In this document: positions 9,412-27,780 of the stretch, piece after piece | Layout of the letters: each line of letters opens with the position of its first letter | Numbering within the stretch: the first letter of the stretch is position 1 | Assembly: GCA_001872315.1 (NCBI GenBank) | Contig: MNVZ01000010.1 | Span: 1,057 to 65,056, forward strand | From: Candidatus Pacearchaeota archaeon CG1_02_39_14 | GTDB taxonomy: Archaea; Nanobdellota; Nanobdellia; Pacearchaeales; GW2011-AR1 | DNA length: 64,000 bases | Direction: 5' to 3' | The notes under the pieces: model-generated | What the model saw: only the letters and a program-made list of their open reading frames with translations | What the model was told of the DNA's origin: nothing | Database searches by the model: none | Translations under genes and position numbers: made by a program

Positions 9412-9786
9412 TTAGAATTTCTGGTCACCACAAAAGTATATCTTTTCATCAATAATCTTATTATCTTTCCAATGCTGGACATTAACTCTATAAATTATTT
9501 TTTTCACTCCTTCTTTATTTTCAATATTAATTGCCCATTCAGTCATAGAAATATTATCTTCTGTTCCTCCAAATGTAACTGAGTTTATTTCAGCATTGTT
9601 TAGTTTTTCTATTTCCTGAAGAAAGATAACCTCTCTTTTTCTATTTGCTTCTTTTCCATGGATAGGGGGATTCCCATTAACTTGCGTAATCACATCATCC
9701 CCATAATATTTCTCAAAAGCCTCCCTTATCTTACCTTCTCTGATTAAGGCATTTAATTTTTCTACATTATTTTTTAGTTTTGACAT
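9412..9786 (-). CDS. NTF2/SnoaL-like fold protein (tandem paralog 2)
   Basis: 124 aa, about 60% identical to the adjacent paralog. Conserved FEKYY, LQEIEKLN and IIDEKIYFCGDQKF blocks. Confidence 0.5.
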   Translation of the reverse strand: MSKLKNNVEKLNALIREGKIREAFEKYYGDDVITQVNGNPPIHGKEANRKREVIFLQEIEKLNNAEINSVTFGGTEDNISMTEWAINIENKEGVKKIIYRVNVQHWKDNKIIDEKIYFCGDQKF

Positions 9787-9804: not shown

Positions 9805-10185
9805 TCAATCTTCTACTTTGAATTTCTGGTCACCACAAAAGTATATCTTTTCATCAATAATCTTATCATCTTTCCAATGTTGAACATTAAGTCTATAAAT
9901 TGTCATCTTTTCCCCTTTCTTGTTCTCTATATTTATCTCCCATTCTGTTACTGAAAAATCATCATTAATCCCTCCAAAAGCAACTAACATTATTTCAGCA
10001 GAGTTTAATTTTTCAATCTCCTGAAGAAATATCATATCTCTTCTTTGTTCTTTTCCAGTTACAGGAGGTTTTCCGTCAAGGTGTATATTTACATCAACAT
10101 TGTAATATTTTTCAAAAGCTTCAGAAATCTTTCCACGTTTAAGTAATGCATTCAATCTGTTTACGTTATCTTTTAAGTCAGTCAT
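9805..10185 (-). CDS. NTF2/SnoaL-like fold protein (tandem paralog 1)
   Basis: 126 aa paralog of 9412-9786. The 3' roughly 75 nt of the coding DNA are nearly identical between the two copies. Confidence 0.5.
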   Translation of the reverse strand: MTDLKDNVNRLNALLKRGKISEAFEKYYNVDVNIHLDGKPPVTGKEQRRDMIFLQEIEKLNSAEIMLVAFGGINDDFSVTEWEINIENKKGEKMTIYRLNVQHWKDDKIIDEKIYFCGDQKFKVED

Positions 10186-19247: not shown

Positions 19248-19694
19248 CTAAGGTCCGAACGCCCTGACAATCAATGCACTACCTTCCTGACAATCAGCCC
19301 ATTGATCAACAGCATCCATATAAAATTGCCAAGTCCGTCTTGTAGGATTATACCTCATGGCTCTTGAGACTATAGGTTCGTTCTGACTATCCTTGATACA
19401 ATTAACAAATCTATAACCATTCCTTCCCAGCCCTCCGCCATCTGCTGCATCTACGCAAGGCTGCTTACCATCAACATGATTGCAAAGCCACGAGCCAAAT
19501 ATCTCTCCATTGCCTATCGCATCCTGCAAGGTCATCTCAGTACCATTGATGTCAACCCAAACTCTGTCTCCCCCATGTCCAGGATTTGGAATAGGCCCAT
19601 CATAAGCCAAGACTAATAAAACCCCCGCAAAAATCAAAATGGAAGCAATAATTCCAACACCAACCCTTTTATTGATATTCACCTCAAACTTCAT
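19248..19694 (-). CDS. secreted Cys-rich small protein (distant paralog of 26120-26593 and 27343-27780)
   Basis: 148 aa. The N-terminus MKFEVNINKR plus hydrophobic anchor ending in VLAYDGP resembles MNVNINLEKKYFF...VVYAQD and MEFNISIEKRYFF...AVYAYG. Confidence 0.5.
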   Translation of the reverse strand: MKFEVNINKRVGVGIIASILIFAGVLLVLAYDGPIPNPGHGGDRVWVDINGTEMTLQDAIGNGEIFGSWLCNHVDGKQPCVDAADGGGLGRNGYRFVNCIKDSQNEPIVSRAMRYNPTRRTWQFYMDAVDQWADCQEGSALIVRAFGP

Positions 19695-19737
19695 GATTCC
19701 TAGAAAGAAAAGGAATATTTAAACATTATCGTTAGTA

Positions 19738-19760
19738 AACATTGTAACGTTAAAGGGAGT
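19738..19760 (+). repeat. left terminal inverted repeat (23 bp) of putative cargo transposon
   Basis: ACATTGTAACGTTAAAGGGAGTT. Its perfect reverse complement lies at 26093-26115. Confidence 0.7.
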
Positions 19761-19854
19761 TTCTGAAAGTTGACAATCCATCAATGAACTTAGTTCGTAA
19801 CTTAATAGTTAATACAATGGAAACTTATTTAAATTATAAAAATATAAACAAATC

Positions 19855-20802
19855 ATGAAAACAAGAAGACCGGGGATAAGTGCTTTAATAAGATGTAAAG
19901 ATGAAGAAGATTTTGTATATTTAAGTTTACTCTCTATTAAAGATTCTGTCGACGAGATCATTTTTATTGATAATGCCTCATGTGATAATAGCATAAACGA
20001 AGCTAAAAGATTTAGGGATTCTCATTTTAAAAATAAAAGATTTGTTCTGGATTCTTATGAAAAAGATACATTTACTGGAGATAATCTTGCAGAAATGAAT
20101 AATTATGCATTATCAAAAACAGAAGGAGAATGGATATTTAAGTGGGATGTTGATACTATTGCCCAAACTAAAGGAAATCATTCCCTTTATAAGATTAGAG
20201 AAGCAATTAAAAGAAAAGATATAGACATATTCAGGTTCGGCTATTGGAATCTATGGGGAGATCCATTTCATTTCATTTCTAATAGTAAGGATGAACCCGA
20301 ATACGGACCAACAGGTTGCGGATTTGAAATGCAAGGTTTAGAACAGAGACTTTTTAGATTTGATGAATCATTTTATTATAGTATGACTCAATATGGGGAG
20401 CATTTTTGGGAGAGACCAAATTTTCCTTCTGGATTTAAACAAGAATATTTAGAATTCATTCCTGGAGTTCATATGCAAACAGTAAAACCTTCAGAGATTA
20501 TAGCTCGGAGGTATTTTCTTACCCGATATGGTCCAAAGGAAAGGGAAAGTTACAAAACATTTTTAGATTTTGTAATGTCTGAAGTAAGAAAAGAAGGGTT
20601 TAGTAACCTTCTAGATTTTGGGAAATTTTTATTAATTGATAAAGTAAATAAACAAGGTAGAAAATTTGAAAGAGAATATCCTATCACGTTAGAGTCTTCC
20701 GATTTGCTAAAAAAACCTCCCTATCTATTTTTATTTGAAGGAAGCATATGCATAGACCGAACAGAACCAATTAAACGATTTAATTACTTTGAGTTAAAAT
20801 GA
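19855..20802 (+). CDS. glycosyltransferase family 2
   Basis: 315 aa with an N-terminal GT-A fold and DxD-like signature (ISALIRCKDEEDF...IFIDNASCDNS). Confidence 0.7.
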   Translation: MKTRRPGISALIRCKDEEDFVYLSLLSIKDSVDEIIFIDNASCDNSINEAKRFRDSHFKNKRFVLDSYEKDTFTGDNLAEMNNYALSKTEGEWIFKWDVDTIAQTKGNHSLYKIREAIKRKDIDIFRFGYWNLWGDPFHFISNSKDEPEYGPTGCGFEMQGLEQRLFRFDESFYYSMTQYGEHFWERPNFPSGFKQEYLEFIPGVHMQTVKPSEIIARRYFLTRYGPKERESYKTFLDFVMSEVRKEGFSNLLDFGKFLLIDKVNKQGRKFEREYPITLESSDLLKKPPYLFLFEGSICIDRTEPIKRFNYFELK

Positions 20803-21887
20803 AAATACTCAGCTCTCTACATTCATATAATATTACTGGAGTTTTAAAGCAAAATATATCCTTATTAAAATATCTGAGAACTAGTGCTGGAATAGATGCT
20901 TTAGTTATTGGTCCAAATAAGAATTTGGGAATGGAAATTCTTGAAGAAGAAGGATTTATTGCTGAGACTACTTTTGGAAGATCAATTAATGATATTTTAC
21001 ATAGGCACAATTTCCATCCCGATCTTATTTTATCAGAATCTTTATTTTCCTCCGATGTTTCTGATTTATCTAAAGAAATAGGAGCAAAACATATTATTCG
21101 CATTCATGAAGAAATACCATTTCAATCAGGAAAGGGACTATGGTTATTACCTTATAGACCAATCAACGAATATTTCCAAAAGTTTAGAAATTCGAAAGTG
21201 ATCTTTCCATCAAGCCATACTGCTAATCATTACAGAATGCCATTGCAAGAATTTGACATTGATTTTAGTGTGATTCATGGTTCTATAGATGAAGAAAGAT
21301 TAAAAGAACAAAAAGAAGTGTTGAATTTTAGTGATTTTCAGATATTACAACTTGGAACACTTTATGAGAGAAAGGGAGGAATAAATACTTTAGAATCTTT
21401 TTTTAATTTTTTGAATAAAGAAGGAGTGGAAAACGCTAATCTAATTTTCGCAGGAGTAAGGAATGCAAATGAAAAAGAAATTCAATACAAAGAGAGACTA
21501 GAAAGAAGAGCAAAAGAGCTCGGAATTGAGGAAAAGGTCAGATTTTATGATTCGATGAAAAACCCGTATGCGTTAATGAAGGGATCTTCTATAGTAACAT
21601 TACATTCTTATTCAGAATGTTTTCCAACTGTTTTTTTGGAAGCAATGTATTTCGGAAAAATGATAGTCTCTAGTAATGTTGGAGGAGTAGGTGAACAAGT
21701 ATATGAAGGCGTCACAGGGTATTTATTCAATTCTGGGGACATTAATGAACAGTCTAATGCATTTTCAAAGTTATATGATGAAAGACATTTACTAGAGAGT
21801 AAAAGTAAGATTATAAAAGATAGATACATTGATTATTTTTCACAAGAATCTTCAGGAGATAAATTTTTAAATTTTTTAGAAAAATGA
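20799..21887 (+). CDS. glycosyltransferase family 4 (GT-B, group 1)
   Basis: 362 aa with C-terminal GT1/GT4 motif (EAMYFGKMIVSSNVGGVGEQVYEGVTGYLF). ATGA coupling on both sides. Confidence 0.75.
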   Translation: MKILSSLHSYNITGVLKQNISLLKYLRTSAGIDALVIGPNKNLGMEILEEEGFIAETTFGRSINDILHRHNFHPDLILSESLFSSDVSDLSKEIGAKHIIRIHEEIPFQSGKGLWLLPYRPINEYFQKFRNSKVIFPSSHTANHYRMPLQEFDIDFSVIHGSIDEERLKEQKEVLNFSDFQILQLGTLYERKGGINTLESFFNFLNKEGVENANLIFAGVRNANEKEIQYKERLERRAKELGIEEKVRFYDSMKNPYALMKGSSIVTLHSYSECFPTVFLEAMYFGKMIVSSNVGGVGEQVYEGVTGYLFNSGDINEQSNAFSKLYDERHLLESKSKIIKDRYIDYFSQESSGDKFLNFLEK

Positions 21888-23149
21888 GATCTATAGATGA
21901 AATAGTTGAAGAGAAAGTTGAACGAAGATTTAATAGTATCTTAAAAACGATAGATGAAGGATCAGAATTAGAGGATGTTAGTCTAAATGAAATACTAAAT
22001 GTTGCTGGGAAGTTAAAAAGAACCGACCTAATCAATCTCGGAGAGATGCCTAAGATAGAAAGAGACGCCGAAATAAAGTATAGGAAAGCACTTTCAACTT
22101 TATCAACGGATGTTGCTGAAGAGTATGTCAAAATAAAAGACAGCAATAATCCTGCACGCCTCTCTTCACTCAATCTACCAATAGACGATAAACAGTTTAA
22201 ATTAAATTATATAGAAGACAAAATTGCCTATAATCCAGAAATGGATAGAAGTTATCTTGTCGAAGCAATAAGAACAATTGCTGAAAGAAAAGAACAAATT
22301 GAACTTAAAAAGATCAGAGGTTTACATAAATCAGTTTCTAGAAAATCGGAATTCGGAGACTTTTTTAATTTGTACTCTGAAATTTCTCAAGATGCTTCTG
22401 CGGTTCTTTTTGATAGGTCTTTGCAAAAAAACCTAATACTGGCTTGTGATGGAAATAATCTTGAGGTTTTGGTTTACAAGTGTTTGAGATTGACTCATGA
22501 TGCTGGAATTCCCAATATCTGTAGCCACCTTGATGATTATGTGACACAAGATAAAGACGGTAAAGATATAAAATTCTTAGGAGAACCTGATAAATATCAG
22601 CTAGATAGAACAAGAGAACTATCCCAAATGGTATCCAGCAGAATACAAAATCTTTCTTTAATAATGTTAATTTCTGATTTTGATTTATGGAAGTTTGGTT
22701 CTGAAACTGTAACAAGACTTTTACCAAAAGCCAAAGATTACATAAAACATGTTAAAGGCTATCTCCCGGAAATTAAGGTAATTTCTGAAACAGATTATGT
22801 AAAAAGTTTTCCTGATTTTGATTCAAACTTTAATAGGGTTTTTGAATCTATAAGAAATAGAGATGGTAGATTTATACACCCAGCAGAATTCTCAAGGATA
22901 GAAACAGATTATAATAATACTTTCGCTGGTACGCTTAACGAGTGGACTGAGGAAAAAAATCTTCATTACTCTCTTTCGTCTGTTTCAAGAAACATTGCTA
23001 CAGGTATTACATTGGATGAAGCGAGAGGTAATTTTTTATTTGTATTTTATAACAATAATACGATTAATGGGGAGCGGATTAATCTAAATGTTAGAGATAA
23101 AATTCCTTGCCTGGCATATCCAAAAATGAAGTCAAAACAAATCCTGTGA
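21884..23149 (+). CDS. hypothetical protein (third gene of coupled GT operon)
   Basis: 421 aa ORF whose start overlaps the GT4 stop (ATGA). No recognised domain. Confidence 0.5.
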   Translation: MRSIDEIVEEKVERRFNSILKTIDEGSELEDVSLNEILNVAGKLKRTDLINLGEMPKIERDAEIKYRKALSTLSTDVAEEYVKIKDSNNPARLSSLNLPIDDKQFKLNYIEDKIAYNPEMDRSYLVEAIRTIAERKEQIELKKIRGLHKSVSRKSEFGDFFNLYSEISQDASAVLFDRSLQKNLILACDGNNLEVLVYKCLRLTHDAGIPNICSHLDDYVTQDKDGKDIKFLGEPDKYQLDRTRELSQMVSSRIQNLSLIMLISDFDLWKFGSETVTRLLPKAKDYIKHVKGYLPEIKVISETDYVKSFPDFDSNFNRVFESIRNRDGRFIHPAEFSRIETDYNNTFAGTLNEWTEEKNLHYSLSSVSRNIATGITLDEARGNFLFVFYNNNTINGERINLNVRDKIPCLAYPKMKSKQIL

Positions 23150-23935
23150 TGCAAAAGTCTTTGATAATTCAATCGCTTTTGTTGCAGATTCCATATCCCC
23201 TCTCGGTAGATCAATACAAAGTGCTTGAGTAAGTTTACTTGTTATCATGTAAAATAGCAGGATCTCTAAGGAATTTTTGTTATGGGGATAATTTTCTAAA
23301 ATTGCATCAAAAAATGGACGATGATTAGATCCTTCTAGTTCTGATATGTCTGCTAAAAGATTTCCTACATCCACTAAAGGATCAAAAATTCCGAAGTATT
23401 CAAAATCAATTATTGCCTTAACTGTATCATCTTGATTGAAGAAAAAATGTCTCATCTTTGCATCAAACCAAGTATAAGAAAATTTTTCTGGTTCTAATTT
23501 AGATCCTAATTTATTTAGTATGCTCTCAAGATTCCCCATATCAAAATGATTCTTTAAACCACCCACATATTTATTGATAACATGCCTTGTAAGACTATAC
23601 GAAAACCCTTGGATTGAAAATCTCGGATCCGAAATATCTTCAGACACCCTTTCATTTATTGGTATATTGTGAAGATTATATAAAACACGCGAAGCATTTT
23701 TAACTCGCTCCTTACTAAGTTTTTCTAATCCATCTTCATGATTTATTTTTTCAAAAGAAATTGCTCTATTTTCGTGATCTATGTGAATTATTTTTGCAAG
23801 AGGAAAGTTATTTTTATTTAATATTTTATAAGCCAATAACTCTCTTTCAAATCCATTATTTGAATCGTAGGTCTTTGTTACAGAATTTTCTCCATAAACA
23901 ATTTTATTATGATGCCTTCTTTCTCGATTATCCAT
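23132..23935 (-). CDS. APH/choline-kinase-like phosphotransferase
   Basis: 267 aa with Brenner/APH motif (HNIPINE...) and metal-binding IIDFEYFGIFDPLVDVGNLL, typical of the aminoglycoside phosphotransferase/choline kinase family. Confidence 0.6.
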   Translation of the reverse strand: MDNRERRHHNKIVYGENSVTKTYDSNNGFERELLAYKILNKNNFPLAKIIHIDHENRAISFEKINHEDGLEKLSKERVKNASRVLYNLHNIPINERVSEDISDPRFSIQGFSYSLTRHVINKYVGGLKNHFDMGNLESILNKLGSKLEPEKFSYTWFDAKMRHFFFNQDDTVKAIIDFEYFGIFDPLVDVGNLLADISELEGSNHRPFFDAILENYPHNKNSLEILLFYMITSKLTQALCIDLPRGDMESATKAIELSKTFASQDLF

Positions 23936-23948
23936 AACAATGATTTAT

Positions 23949-24812
23949 TCAATTTATTTTTAAATCTTTGCCATCGTATTCTGAAATACCTTCAAATTTG
24001 AACGGGCTTTTTTTGTTACCTTCTCCAAAAGATCTTATCTTTAATATCGGGAAATTATACTCTTTACACATATCAAGTATCTCATTTTTTAATGTTGTCT
24101 CTTTTTCTTCTTCAATTAATGGAAAGCCCCCAAGTATTAGTCCATTAATTTTTTTAAAAATTCCTCTAATCTTGAATTGGTAAAGCCAATATTTTATCAT
24201 CCTATAATCTTTTTCTGTGTGATTTTCCAAAGCAAGAATTTTATTCTCAAAATTTATCAATTCTGGATTTGTCGCGATAATGTTTAATAGAGCTATATCA
24301 TTTCCTGGGATAAGCTTTCCAGAAAATTGTCCTTTTTTATAAACATTTATCTCTTCTGCTTTTATATTCAGAGGTTCTCTTTTTAAAATTGTGTCAAATC
24401 TTTCTATTGATTTCTCATCAAGTTTGGAGAAAGATTTTAAGTTGAGACCAACAAAAACTTCCAGATTAGATATATTATTTAAATATGGTGCAAGATGACA
24501 AAAATCACTATTGCCTAAAATGATTTTTTTATTATTCAACTTAATATTTATATTTAGATAATTAATTAATTCTATACTTCTAACTCCTCCCTTAGCAACC
24601 ATTATCAGGTCTATTCCATCATCAGCTATAGCTTTATTGAGAGATTTTGCAAGAAATTTTGGATCTATAGTTGAGAGGGTATTTTTTATTAAAGAAATTT
24701 TAACATGGTGGTATTTGTTTTGTATAAAACTCATATCTCTTTCTATCTTAGTTAAATCTTCTTTTTTTATTTTTCCTGACAGATTTATTATTACGATATT
24801 TTTAGCTTTCAT
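23949..24812 (-). CDS. S66-family LD-carboxypeptidase/MccF-like serine peptidase (tentative)
   Basis: 287 aa with a GxSD nucleophile-elbow-like motif (ILGNSDFCHL) and size/organisation compatible with S66. No strong catalytic triad can be confirmed by eye. Confidence 0.4.
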   Translation of the reverse strand: MKAKNIVIINLSGKIKKEDLTKIERDMSFIQNKYHHVKISLIKNTLSTIDPKFLAKSLNKAIADDGIDLIMVAKGGVRSIELINYLNINIKLNNKKIILGNSDFCHLAPYLNNISNLEVFVGLNLKSFSKLDEKSIERFDTILKREPLNIKAEEINVYKKGQFSGKLIPGNDIALLNIIATNPELINFENKILALENHTEKDYRMIKYWLYQFKIRGIFKKINGLILGGFPLIEEEKETTLKNEILDMCKEYNFPILKIRSFGEGNKKSPFKFEGISEYDGKDLKIN

Positions 24813-24837
24813 ATATTAAAAGATTTATTCCAGATAT

Positions 24838-25776
24838 TTAAACTTTGCTCAATTTAATCAAGTCCAGCCACTTATTAACTCCTAACTCTAAATGAGGTAT
24901 AGCAACTTCTGCAGGTGTCTTTTTACCTAAAGTCATATGTTTTCTATTAAAGTTATAGTTAATTTCTAGACCTTTCATTATTGCATGGGCACTTTCTATA
25001 CAACCATGAAAACCTCTCATGACTTTTGTTCTTTCTCTAATAGTATTATGTAACCTCTCAATTGGATAATTAAAACCTCTTTCATCTGCTATTACAACAT
25101 TATGGATTATCTTGCTCTTAGTTCTTGAAGAAGCGTGATACGGAGATTGTAAACTAAAAGTCTTCCTTAACACTCTTGGGTAACCTCTTAGTCCATCTGT
25201 TGTAACAATCTCAACCTGTTCTTCTGTCTTAAATTTTGCTCTCTTCATAACTTTGATTAAATTTTCATTAGTTCTACTTCCAATATACTCACCTGTAACC
25301 ATAAACTTAGTTTCTACATCAAAAGTATCAACAAACCAATTCTGTTCTTTTCCTCTGTGATATTTACTTTTTCTTCTGTAATATTCCATTTCATCGCTTT
25401 GCATTTCCTTTCCACATTTTATTGGAATGTTATCAACCAAATTTCCAACCATTTCAGCATATTTTATTATCCATCTGTAAACTGACATATGACTTGAGTT
25501 GTAAGGGTAGAAAGCTTGGAAATGTTCTTGTACTTTTCTTAATGAAACGCCTTTGTAATACAAATCAATTCCAGCAGTAATTTTGTTCTCGTTATTTCTC
25601 ATTCTATAAAACCCATCATCAATGACAAACCTAAAATTACATTCTTTACATCTGTATCTTTGAATTTTACCTCTATTTTGAGTTTTCCTTTTTCCGTCTT
25701 TCTTAATCTTGTTAGAACTACATTTAGGACAAGTTACATTTTTATACTTCTGTTGAATTATCTCTTTGGATTTCAT
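24838..25776 (-). CDS. DDE-type transposase with N-terminal C4 zinc ribbon (IS6/IS1-like)
   Basis: 312 aa. N-terminal CPKC...CKEC zinc finger. The core ends in the integrase-like signature NYNFNRKHMTLGKKTPAEV, with acidic residues spaced as in DDE transposases. Confidence 0.7.
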   Translation of the reverse strand: MKSKEIIQQKYKNVTCPKCSSNKIKKDGKRKTQNRGKIQRYRCKECNFRFVIDDGFYRMRNNENKITAGIDLYYKGVSLRKVQEHFQAFYPYNSSHMSVYRWIIKYAEMVGNLVDNIPIKCGKEMQSDEMEYYRRKSKYHRGKEQNWFVDTFDVETKFMVTGEYIGSRTNENLIKVMKRAKFKTEEQVEIVTTDGLRGYPRVLRKTFSLQSPYHASSRTKSKIIHNVVIADERGFNYPIERLHNTIRERTKVMRGFHGCIESAHAIMKGLEINYNFNRKHMTLGKKTPAEVAIPHLELGVNKWLDLIKLSKV

Positions 25777-25793
25777 CTTAGCGGGTGGAATCT

Positions 25794-25811
25794 GGGACTC
25801 TTCGGAGTCCC
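25794..25811 (-). promoter_or_regulatory. GC-rich hairpin in transposase 5' leader
   Basis: GGGACTC-TTCG-GAGTCCC, a perfect 7-bp stem with a 4-nt loop, 18-35 nt upstream of the transposase start codon in otherwise AT-rich DNA. Confidence 0.3.
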
Positions 25812-25920
25812 TGTATATTATTAACTAATAATATATCAGTTAAGTATATTAGCTATTTAAACTTTTCTATAGTAGAGAATATACTAAATATTTATATACT
25901 AATTAATCATATATCTATTG

Positions 25921-26076
25921 ATGGCGAGAGTAAAAATAGAAGTTGAAGGTTTCCAATGTGAGAGATGTGGGCATAAATGGGTTCCTCGTGGAAGTGATGA
26001 AGAACCTGCTGTTTGCCCAAAATGTAAAAGCCCATATTGGAATAAACCAAGAAAACGAAAAATAAAGAAACATTAA
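25921..26076 (+). CDS. small zinc-ribbon protein (51 aa), not in the six-frame track
   Basis: MARVKIEVEGFQCERCGHKWVPRGSDEEPAVCPKCKSPYWNKPRKRKIKKH. Two CxxC pairs and a basic tail. Followed by a T7 run. Confidence 0.4.
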   Translation: MARVKIEVEGFQCERCGHKWVPRGSDEEPAVCPKCKSPYWNKPRKRKIKKH

Positions 26077-26083
26077 TTTTTTT
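26077..26083 (+). terminator. oligo-T archaeal-type terminator
   Basis: TTTTTTT immediately after the TAA stop of the small zinc-ribbon ORF. Confidence 0.3.
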
Positions 26084-26092
26084 GAGCTAAAT

Positions 26093-26115
26093 AACTCCCT
26101 TTAACGTTACAATGT
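26093..26115 (-). repeat. right terminal inverted repeat (23 bp)
   Basis: AACTCCCTTTAACGTTACAATGT is the exact reverse complement of 19738-19760. Confidence 0.7.
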
Positions 26116-26119
26116 ATCA

Positions 26120-26593
26120 TTAGTATCTGTTAGAAATTATCTTACAGCAACTTATTGCGATGCTCGCCTCAGCAATGTATTCCTCGTTATCTGTTAGGCA
26201 AACCTGTCCCTTGTGGTTAAGATCCCCAGGATAAACATCCCATTGCTCCTGCCTGGAATCATTGCTAGTAACCATAATGTCACATCCCGTTTTCTTATAT
26301 CCTTTTGAACATCCTAAGCCCCACCATTCCCCGCCTTCTTCAGGTCCAAGTTCAGATGCATTCCCTATAGGAATAATGGTCCCTGGCTTGCCTGAAATCA
26401 TTCTTACAAGAGGGGCATCATTGCCCATTCTGGTCGCATAAACGCAATCAAGACTGAGCCCAACATCCGGTTTGATTAACAAAGTAGGATCTTCCAAATC
26501 CTGGGCATAAACTACAAAAAAACCTCCAATCAAAAGCACTAATCCAAGAATTCCAAAAAAATATTTCTTTTCCAGATTAATGTTAACATTCAT
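26120..26593 (-). CDS. secreted Cys-rich paralog family protein A
   Basis: 157 aa. N-terminus MNVNINLEKKYFF plus anchor. Shared blocks with 27343-27780: LDCVYATR, WGLGC..YKKTGC, C(L/V)TD(N/D)EEY, SI.CCKI. Confidence 0.55.
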   Translation of the reverse strand: MNVNINLEKKYFFGILGLVLLIGGFFVVYAQDLEDPTLLIKPDVGLSLDCVYATRMGNDAPLVRMISGKPGTIIPIGNASELGPEEGGEWWGLGCSKGYKKTGCDIMVTSNDSRQEQWDVYPGDLNHKGQVCLTDNEEYIAEASIAISCCKIISNRY

Positions 26594-26651: not shown

Positions 26652-27356
26652 TCAGAAGCTTCCTGAACTAGTGCAGCAAATCTTCAGAGGATAATTATTT
26701 GCATCCCGAGATTCTAAGTGAGCATTCCTTTCTCCAGTCAAAGAAGCAATTTCTTCTTCATCCGCAAGGCATTCAGCTCTTGAAGTGCATTGCAAGTCCC
26801 CATAACATACAGGAAGATTATAATCTCCTGAAAAAACTTCAGGTGCTTCTGCATGTGAGTTAAAGCTCTTTATCAACCTTAAAACAAGGTTATTTTCCTC
26901 TCCTGAATTGCCGGAACATTGATGTGGATCTCTGTTTCCAAAGTCAAACATCTCTCCAAATATCTCATTGTAACACACCTTCAAAGAATAAACTGTCTCA
27001 TTCCATAAAGCACCATGTGTATTCTCTTCTCCATATAGCCTCATAATTATTTGTCCGTCATCACATATATTTCTCTTTGAAGAGCCACCACCCCCGTTTC
27101 CTCCGCCACGATAAGTCCTGTTGTTCTCATAATTGATAGGGTTATATCCATATTCATTATTATTCAAGTTAGAATTATCGTAATTACCAAGGCCCGTATA
27201 ATTATAATAATCTCTTGATGGGTTAGGTTCGGGATCTTCCTCAGAAGTGTAAACCCTTACAAGCAAAAACATGGAAACAACAATCAACAGGAGCAATAAA
27301 ATAGCTAAAACGATAACTGAAATCTTATCTTTGCTATTCATTTTAATTAGCCGCAA
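26652..27356 (-). CDS. secreted Asn/Tyr-rich and Cys-rich protein (same family, C-terminal CC motif)
   Basis: 234 aa with an N-terminal anchor, a low-complexity N/Y/G linker, and a Cys-rich domain ending in KICCTSSGSF. 14-nt overlap with the upstream paralog. Confidence 0.5.
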   Translation of the reverse strand: MRLIKMNSKDKISVIVLAILLLLLIVVSMFLLVRVYTSEEDPEPNPSRDYYNYTGLGNYDNSNLNNNEYGYNPINYENNRTYRGGGNGGGGSSKRNICDDGQIIMRLYGEENTHGALWNETVYSLKVCYNEIFGEMFDFGNRDPHQCSGNSGEENNLVLRLIKSFNSHAEAPEVFSGDYNLPVCYGDLQCTSRAECLADEEEIASLTGERNAHLESRDANNYPLKICCTSSGSF

Positions 27357-27780
27357 TCTTGCAACAAACGATGCTTAACCCAGCACTTGCATTATATTCT
27401 TCATCATCGGTTACACAACCTTGTCCATCACTAGTAGAAGTAACATCAGAATCGATAGATTCACCTGTAAAATCAGCTAAATAACATCCAGTCTTCTTGT
27501 AATCATTAACACATCCAAGTCCCCACTTCTCGTCAAATCCTCCCCCAATTCCTATACTCTCAATAGCACTGGCATCCCCTGAAATAATAACCGGTTCTTC
27601 TCCAGCATTTCTAATCGCGTAAGTACAATCTAATTTTATATCCAACTCTCCAACACTATGCCCAAAAACCTCTGGCTCATTAGTGCCGTAAGCGTAAACT
27701 GCAAAAATTCCTGTAATCAGAAATAAAGCTCCTAAAATCGTAAAGAAATATCTTTTCTCAATACTAATGTTAAACTCCAT
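27343..27780 (-). CDS. secreted Cys-rich paralog family protein B
   Basis: 145 aa with clear homology to 26120-26593 (see the shared blocks listed there). Confidence 0.55.
   Translation of the reverse strand: MEFNISIEKRYFFTILGALFLITGIFAVYAYGTNEPEVFGHSVGELDIKLDCTYAIRNAGEEPVIISGDASAIESIGIGGGFDEKWGLGCVNDYKKTGCYLADFTGESIDSDVTSTSDGQGCVTDDEEYNASAGLSIVCCKIAAN

Follow-up and report, generated by a model that had tools for sequence, protein, structure and literature searches.

Insertion sequences (ISs) of the IS1 family typically duplicate 9 bp of target DNA, and members with a single reading frame occur in archaea, where the ISMhu11 subgroup reaches about 4.6 kb and includes passenger genes. Members of the IS6 family are 0.7-0.9 kb, up to 1.8 kb, in length and generate 8-bp duplications; clades with an extra zinc finger exist, and one member only, ISDsp3, was listed with a single passenger gene (PMC7986276). 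With regard to target choice, TnGBS, ISLre2 and ISKra4, which are bacterial elements with Mutator-like DDE (Asp-Asp-Glu) transposases, insert 15-17 bp upstream of the -35 box of sigma-A promoters, and for the archaeal ISH6 a possible promoter bias was merely suggested, via an AT-rich duplicated motif (PMC3942029). Here we describe a 6,379-bp element at positions 19738-26116 of a 64,000-nt stretch (the window) of contig MNVZ01000010.1 from Candidatus Pacearchaeota archaeon CG1_02_39_14. It is very probably an autonomous unit transposon, i.e. an IS with passenger genes, from an IS1/IS6-type DDE clade found across the DPANN archaea, and the members of this family are inserted at a fixed distance from the TATA boxes of host genes.

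The preliminary description of this locus had reported an exact 23-bp inverted repeat, which was confirmed by a scan of the window. The 23-mer ACATTGTAACGTTAAAGGGAGTT is on the plus strand at 19739-19761, one base to the right of the 19738 start given earlier, and its exact reverse complement is at 26093-26115; no third site was found in the window even with up to three mismatches, and none of 100 shuffles contained such a repeat. The terminal inverted repeats proper are 24 bp, with 23 of 24 positions matching and the outermost base mismatched, as the cargo-side end has an A at its terminal base (19738) and the family consensus a T. The ends were set at 19738 and 26116 because the ends of relatives begin with T and are followed by a 9-bp duplication. 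One such relative, the P0009 element (L028; transposase 82% identical), has ends starting with TGCATTGTTAAG and a 9-bp duplication of ACCTTGTAG; another, the P0047 element (L035 and L038; transposase 77% identical), has ends of the same type and a duplication of CGTTGAACC. The near-identical direct repeats said to flank the element are real (ATCGTTAGTA and ATCATTAGTA, the latter at 26116-26125), with the left copy at 19728-19737 rather than at 19727-19736. The target-site duplication proposed from them is present too, not as a 10-mer with a 1-nt offset but as 9 bp with one mismatch (TCGTTAGTA versus TCATTAGTA; also read as TACTAATGA / TACTAACGA in the window's own context).

The guanine-plus-cytosine (GC) content of the element is 30.3%, compared with 38.8% for the rest of the window, and is also below the 33-35% of the flanks in a second host. 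As the 12-mer core of the terminal repeat occurs in the 64-kb window at the two ends of the element only, and as the flanks differ between the two hosts, a regulatory palindrome or operator was rejected as the origin of the repeat. There is no second transposase gene or second IS within 19738-26116, so the element is not a composite (two-IS) transposon.

The identical 312-aa transposase was present in 59 assembly-index blocks, and the 23 contigs that were read showed distinct contexts, at least two of which are unrelated. In context A, that of the window itself, the order is ProRS ... 157-aa gene, element, 148-aa gene and GatD. In context B, found on contigs of the CG1_02_35_32 type (L002 and L003), the element is situated between a DUF5667 gene and genes for a family 2 glycosyltransferase (GT2) and a radical S-adenosylmethionine (SAM) protein, none of these neighbours being related to those of context A. 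BLAST similarity between L002 and the window was limited to 19738-26116, over which the 6,379 bp were 99.984% identical with one difference. Both terminal repeats were found in context B, and the insertion there is flanked by a perfect 9-bp direct duplication, CTATCACTC. Looking up the DUF5667 protein gave two further filled alleles (L122 and L124) and four contigs (L120, L121, L123 and L125) in which the DUF5667 gene is directly beside the GT2 gene. The empty junction reads ...AAATATCCTC CTATCACTC TCTTTTGTATTC..., with a single copy of the 9-mer as predicted, and the flanks of these empty alleles are 99.98-100% identical to those of the filled allele. Direct duplications of 9 bp at both insertions, together with a single copy in the empty site, are the signature of DDE transposition. 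The evidence therefore bears out the earlier proposal of a mobile unit transposon, and strongly supports that the element has been recently mobile and has passed between Pacearchaeota populations.

Another explanation for the two contexts is that a passive genomic island was swapped by homologous or illegitimate recombination, with the repeats as relics and the transposase uninvolved. The altered terminal base of the cargo-side end would fit this, as would a 7.3-kb deletion through one end in some contigs (L006, L009 and L010), which means that recombination does act on the element. However, there is no flanking similarity between the two hosts that could support homologous exchange, the duplications and the single-copy empty site point to DDE transposition, the same architecture recurs in 29 elements, and both hosts have an intact transposase open reading frame (ORF) with 100% identity between them. 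We regard the passive island as highly improbable. The probability that the shared element is a metagenome-assembly chimera or bin contamination is close to negligible: one contig, L008, is probably chimeric and many contigs break inside the element, but both full contexts come from independent ENA, JGI and NCBI assemblies that were made from different samples, each context has its own target duplication, and a matching empty allele exists.

Several variants of the element were also seen. The sole difference of the window element from L002 (context B) and L005 (context A) is a C>T change at 20476, a nonsense single-nucleotide polymorphism (SNP) by which the product of the first cargo gene is cut to 207 aa in many other copies. 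Both alleles occur in both host contexts, which could reflect true exchange between copies or the mixing of shared-repeat reads by assemblers. The 7.3-kb deletion in L006, L009 and L010, a variant of context B, runs from the interior of the 421-aa cargo gene through the cargo-side end into host DNA; its breakpoint is equivalent to window position 22427, at a 15-bp microhomology, and leaves a one-ended, immobilised remnant. Contig L008, in which a flank from the window genome is joined to this deletion variant, was set aside as probably an assembly chimera. Downstream of the context B insertion site, at about 10622-11845 in L008-L010, there is a different transposase (SWIM and DDE_Tnp_1 domains, 326 aa), also with a neighbouring 51-aa ORF. 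The metagenome-assembled genome (MAG) GCA_002790905.1 (L121 and L039) is empty for the window element, yet holds a 7.2-kb P0047 element with SpoU, NUDIX, methyltransferase and flavoprotein genes as cargo. An empty allele and a different element of the family in one MAG indicate that family members come and go independently within a lineage.

The preliminary description had called such an element unusual for a reduced archaeal genome. This did not hold, as the family is common in DPANN archaea: 1,252 protein relatives of the transposase were found at E <= 1e-3, those with names being annotated as Nano-, Woese-, Pace- and other DPANN archaea, and a scan of one genome per GTDB species gave 154 loci, of which 80 were kept. 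Elements were delimited by a T[GA][CT]ATTGT motif 250-400 bp upstream of the transposase, followed by its reverse complement downstream. In this way 30 insertions were delimited, representing 29 different elements of 1,993-9,244 bp with the end consensus T[GA]CATTGT[TA][AG]C. The duplication is 9 bp and perfect at 26 of the 28 readable insertions and has one mismatch at the other two; L065, which is ambiguous, and L066, which begins at a contig end, are outside this count. An upstream T[GA]CATTGT motif was absent from about one third of the more distant relatives of the transposase, with 50-58% identity, and these were left undelimited. Several genomes carry more than one element, with two or three distinct ones side by side, such as L045, L048 and L118, which share a MAG. 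At L045 a 33-nt sequence (the 9-bp duplication plus the TGCATTGTTACCTAAGCGGGA end) is found at the left boundary (1168-1200) and again directly past the right end (9698-9730), which looks like insertion beside a solo end or recombination between ends.

Each family element has one transposase gene near one end, followed by 0.7-8 kb of unrelated cargo before the other end. The cargo is unlike in every element, comprising 110 ORFs with 105 Pfam families (E <= 1e-5). These include SAM methyltransferases, radical SAM proteins, NUDIX, SpoU, TrmB and AsnC regulators, class I Trp/Tyr tRNA synthetases, ABC transporters, HsdM (restriction-modification) and ADP-ribosylglycohydrolase. A literature search under ISMhu11, IS1 passenger genes, DPANN transposons, transporter IS and TATA target sites, which did not cover ISfinder, gave no published description of the family, and the Forterrea transposon paper concerns an IS of about 1.5 kb in a Diapherotrite and not these cargo elements. 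The family is widespread in DPANN archaea and apparently undescribed, as the preliminary description had suspected of the window element.

As the transposase and the zinc-ribbon gene next to it are at one extreme of the element, it could be argued that the basic unit is an IS of about 1.3 kb made up of these two genes, and that the cargo was caught once when a surrogate distal end was used by accident, in a one-ended or end-skipping transposition like that of ISEcp1. The distal repeat of relatives does often differ from the proximal one, by 1-7 mismatches in 25 positions. Against this, no repeat-like sequence adjoins 24838, just past the transposase stop codon, in the window, and the family ends do not closely surround the transposase gene (24838-25776): one is about 340 bp upstream of it, past the 51-aa ORF, and the other is past the cargo. 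None of the 29 elements is cargo-free, the smallest being 1,993 bp, and the match of distal ends to the family consensus extends beyond 20 bp, closer than surrogate ends would allow. A sister element, L134, also carries this cargo, with 76% nucleotide identity and 30% GC for the five-gene module and with ends of another subtype (TGCATTGTTGCG...); this indicates a long-term linkage of cargo and element. A single capture by a small IS is thus very unlikely.

A profile search of the transposase pointed to IS1/IS6-type enzymes, in agreement with the NCBI label "IS1/IS6 family transposase", yet both full-length models remained below threshold. The best NCBIfam hit was IS1 (NF033558; 52 bits, E 8e-14, cut-off 100), followed by IS6 (NF033587; 50.6 bits, cut-off 125); PF13610 scored 21.6 against a cut-off of 27, and a short, sub-domain match to Transposase_mut covered residues 60-110. 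The IS1/IS1595 zinc-finger domain NF050000, at 31.1 bits, was above its cut-off of 28. When a profile of 17 relatives was compared by hhalign, it aligned with the IS26 transposase over 188 columns (probability 89.7%, E 1.8e-6), with the IS1 InsA zinc finger at a probability of 80%, and weakly with InsB (E 0.11); no solved-structure relatives of the profile were found. Residues D128 (SDEMEY), D194 (TTDG), E240 (IERLHNTIR) and R247 are invariant among the 17 relatives. Matched by eye to MDETYV, NTDKAP and IECDHGKLK of IS26, the first three are the putative catalytic triad, accompanied by R247, and the position of the last acidic residue was ambiguous in the hhalign alignment with IS26. The IS6-like ends and core, the IS1-like zinc finger and the 9-bp duplication indicate that the clade mixes IS1 and IS6 traits. 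The 51-aa zinc-ribbon protein probably has an accessory or regulatory role in the element; at 39 of 48 loci of the family, a divergent gene between the end and the transposase encodes a 47-57-aa CxxC...CxxC protein with a basic tail.

The insertion sites of the family are not random. When the empty sites were reconstructed and aligned, a consensus of TTTAWAAAnnTTT-[N9]-nAAnnTTTAWATA was obtained. Reading outward from the edge of the duplication, TTTAWA is found at offset 5 in 21 flanks (12 right, 9 left) and at offset 7 in six, with none at offsets 0-4, 6 or 8 and almost none elsewhere within 40 bp. Of the 28 sites, 20 have the motif at offset 5 on one side or both, and 24 have it at offset 5 or 7. 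The expectation from the intergenic DNA of these loci, about 40,800 positions based on crude ORF calls, is 1.2% and 2.4%, respectively, so that the enrichment at offset 5 is about 60-fold over random intergenic positions (binomial P ~1e-32). For 17 of the 27 TATA motifs, an outward-reading ORF starts with ATG 27-36 nt further on, a spacing that is usual for leaderless archaeal genes. The window insertion is at offset 5 from the TATA box of gene 19248-19694, whose ATG is 29 nt downstream of the first T of the box, and the context B insertion is at offset 7. Both orientations of the element relative to the promoter are used, and the ends are near-symmetric. Because insertion takes place just upstream of the B recognition element (BRE), the archaeal promoter sequence that adjoins the TATA box, the neighbouring promoter and gene survive.

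This pattern could be explained without any target specificity of the transposase, if insertion is random and only the copies that spare genes and promoters persist. Intergenic spacers in DPANN genomes are short; at the window site the spacer from the upstream stop codon to the BRE is filled by the duplication itself, and only 19 bp separate the two divergent TATA boxes of L067. However, survival would allow any offset of at least 5, whereas 21 flanks at offset 5 and six at offset 7 were observed, and the enrichment holds relative to random intergenic positions. In addition, many sites have 60-470 bp of other apparently non-coding DNA on the opposite side. An offset that is sharp to the single base, together with this spare non-coding DNA, means that survival alone is not a full explanation, and we consider random insertion with selective persistence to be an unlikely alternative. 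A bolder reading, with a probability of roughly 0.55, is that the transposase, perhaps with the 51-aa protein, actively recognises archaeal promoters, and that the family is a dedicated gene shuttle integrating exactly 5 bp upstream of the TATA box.

Several points weigh against the overall account of a mobile unit transposon with a preferred target. Survival of harmless insertions could account for part of the promoter-proximal pattern, and the crude ORF calls affect both the intergenic expectation and the lengths of non-coding DNA. The empty sites sought after the preliminary description were found for the context B insertion and not for that of the window: look-ups of the flanking proteins gave filled alleles or contigs ending inside the element, the predicted empty junction had 0 exact matches among the metagenome contigs scanned, and a scan for the cargo-side junction gave one additional copy only, also in the context of the window. 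Given this and the mismatch in its duplication, the window copy may be older or fixed. The evidence for mobility is at the level of assembled contigs and not of reads, where intermediates, circles or cointegrate junctions would be seen, and assemblers can mix the reads of a repeat common to two genomes, so that the allele sharing within the element (the SNP at 20476 and the hybrid contig L008) is not interpretable. The transposase reaches the curated cut-off of neither the IS1 nor the IS6 model, and its catalytic residues are assigned from alignment alone. No vehicle for cell-to-cell transfer was identified; a viral vector was rejected, as there were 0 relatives on IMG/VR viral contigs.

The proposed reaction is as follows. 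The zinc finger and helix-turn-helix of the transposase would bind both element ends, and the DDE centre (D128, D194 and E240) would free the 3'-OH ends. These would then be joined to target phosphates staggered by 9 bp, and gap repair would give the duplication. On the target, the stagger lies 5 bp, or in some cases 7 bp, upstream of the TATA box of an outward-reading gene. If promoters are actively recognised, the BRE/TATA sequence could be read directly, or the DNA could be recognised as bent by TATA-binding protein (TBP) and transcription factor B (TFB). By analogy with IS6 and IS1, the reaction may perhaps be replicative, with a cointegrate that is resolved by host recombination.

Table 1. 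Coordinates of the window element, its genes and the host features at the insertion site
Feature	Position	Strand	Remarks
Target-site duplication, left copy	19729..19737	.	TCGTTAGTA
Cargo-side terminal inverted repeat	19738..19761	+	24 bp, AACATTGTAACGTTAAAGGGAGTT; boundary of homology with the context B genome at 19738
Cargo gene 1, GT2-like glycosyltransferase, 315 aa	19855..20802	+	PF00535, 22.3 bits, slightly under cut-off
Cargo gene 2, family 4 glycosyltransferase (GT4), 362 aa	20799..21887	+	PF00534, E 5.5e-28; start overlaps preceding stop (ATGA)
Cargo gene 3, 421-aa protein, near-orphan	21884..23149	+	No Pfam, NCBIfam or PDB match
Cargo gene 4, APH-family small-molecule kinase, 267 aa	23132..23935	-	PF01636, E 6e-9; convergent to the operon
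Cargo gene 5, S66 peptidase homologue, 287 aa	23949..24812	-	PF02016 and PF17676; nearest to MccF-type
Transposase, 312 aa	24838..25776	-	N-terminal IS1-type CxxC...CxxC zinc finger, helix-turn-helix, IS6-like DDE core
Zinc-ribbon gene, 51 aa, basic tail	25921..26076	+	Divergent from transposase; Pfam zinc-ribbon matches sub-threshold
Transposase-side terminal inverted repeat	26093..26116	-	24 bp, TACATTGTAACGTTAAAGGGAGTT on the minus strand; homology boundary at 26116
Target-site duplication, right copy	26117..26125	.	TCATTAGTA; overlaps stop codon of host gene 26120-26593
Host TATA box of gene 19248-19694	19716..19723	-	TTTAAATA; 5 bp outside the duplication

The gene content of the element (Table 1) is as first described, with the GT2-like, GT4 and 421-aa genes in one operon with 4-nt ATGA overlaps, and the kinase, the S66/MccF-like peptidase homologue, the transposase and the zinc-ribbon gene following. 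The cargo module has its own TATA-like promoter region inside the cargo-side end. For the GT2-like protein, the closest solved structure by sequence is the protein glycosyltransferase GmaR (E 3e-6). The 421-aa protein had 3 homologues in 5.8 billion clusters. Its AlphaFold model, made from 4 sequences, had a predicted local distance difference test (pLDDT) score of 62 and a predicted template modelling (pTM) score of 0.43, and Foldseek returned weak matches to TyrRS/TrpRS, cyclodipeptide synthases and PvcA (E >= 0.02, TM <= 0.25), so that a fold like that of TyrRS or cyclodipeptide synthases is a lead from modelling and not a result. The S66 homologue matched MccF / MccC-family chains in the PDB (E 8e-11). 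It retains the nucleophile Ser (GNSD) and the Glu, and has Glu (SFGEG) in place of the catalytic His (NFGHT in solved relatives); judged by these residues, it may be inactive or have an altered triad.

PADLOC gave no meaningful match to defence systems among the cargo. Based on the domain families alone, the most likely role of the module is to make or modify a surface glycan or a small molecule that is glycosylated or phosphorylated. A module of GT2, GT4, orphan and S66 genes, without the kinase and at 39% amino-acid identity, was also found on a contig of 55% GC (L132) with no transposase in view; the cargo module may have originated in such an organism or be maintained there independently.

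The element is located amid genes for small Cys-containing proteins with an N-terminal hydrophobic segment (26120-26593, 27343-27780, 19248-19694 and 26652-27356). The 157-aa and 145-aa neighbours are paralogues with 40% identity, and the 148-aa protein shares the N-terminus only. These proteins had no Pfam or NCBIfam match in a scan that left out the 234-aa protein, and they may be pilin-like or surface proteins. Elsewhere in the window, a 229-nt direct repeat with 80% identity is present at 9412-9640 and 9817-10045, 405 nt apart, with a weaker, partial third copy at about 8554; these are probably repeat units within a coding sequence.

DPANN genomes are tiny and lack many pathways, and the route by which they gain genes is an open question. 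The present locus offers direct evidence, resolved to the base pair, for one such route: a 6.4-kb multi-gene module whose transfer between two Pacearchaeota populations in the same aquifer is very recent, and which is still polymorphic in one of them. It is part of a large family in which cargo is the norm, and three distinct elements, each 5-9 kb long, coexist in some genomes. The constant distance of 5 bp from the TATA box points to target selection with analogues in bacteria (TnGBS) and eukaryotes (Ty3), and no report of fixed TATA-spaced target selection for archaea was found in the literature. If promoters are actively recognised, insertion into such safe havens would let multi-gene cargo spread between species of ultra-small archaea without disrupting their dense genomes, and the family would be the first DDE transposition system in archaea for which targeting of promoters is described. 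If the specificity is in the transposase, it could provide a natural tool for inserting DNA beside archaeal promoters, as well as a handle on how a transposase reads a TBP/TFB-type promoter. As the family is between IS1 and IS6, it also bears on how these two families relate to each other.

Compared with IS6, the family has a DDE core and helix-turn-helix homologous to the IS26 transposase, a single transposase ORF, and Pfam DDE_Tnp_IS240 matches in many relatives. The family ends, T-GCA-T/C-TGTTGCA, for example TGCATTGTTGCATC, agree with the IS26 end GGCACTGTTGCAAA at 10 of 14 positions, the end of the window element (TACATTGTAACGTT) being more diverged from it than other family ends. However, all 28 sites that can be assessed have a duplication of 9 bp and not 8 bp, the elements are 2-9 kb with internal cargo and an extra conserved 51-aa gene, the transposase is under the NCBIfam IS6 cut-off, and TATA-adjacent insertion has not been reported for IS6. 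In the pseudo-compound transposons of IS26, the cargo is between two directly repeated IS copies, whereas here it is between the inverted ends of one element. The likeness to IS1 consists of the InsA-type N-terminal zinc finger (NF050000 above cut-off), the best NCBIfam hit and the 9-bp duplication. The catalytic region, in contrast, aligns weakly with InsB, there is no programmed frameshift, the ends are nearer to those of IS6, and the score of 52 bits falls short of the 100 required by the IS1 model.

One transposase, two inverted ends, passenger genes and a target duplication are shared with transporter ISs (tIS) and unit transposons such as the Tn3 family and IS1595 members with passengers. 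Here, however, cargo is the rule (29 of 29 elements) and is housekeeping-like or metabolic rather than antibiotic resistance. The features of Tn3, namely a resolvase, res site or recombinase, 38-bp ends and a 5-bp duplication, are absent, and the transposase is a 312-aa IS1/IS6-like enzyme. With TnGBS, ISLre2 and ISKra4 the family shares a fixed distance upstream of an outward-reading promoter that is left intact. This is a functional analogy only, since the transposase superfamilies are unrelated (Mutator-like p-MULT versus the IS6-like core here), and the target in this family is not a sigma-70 promoter but an archaeal BRE/TATA promoter, with insertion 5 bp from the TATA box.

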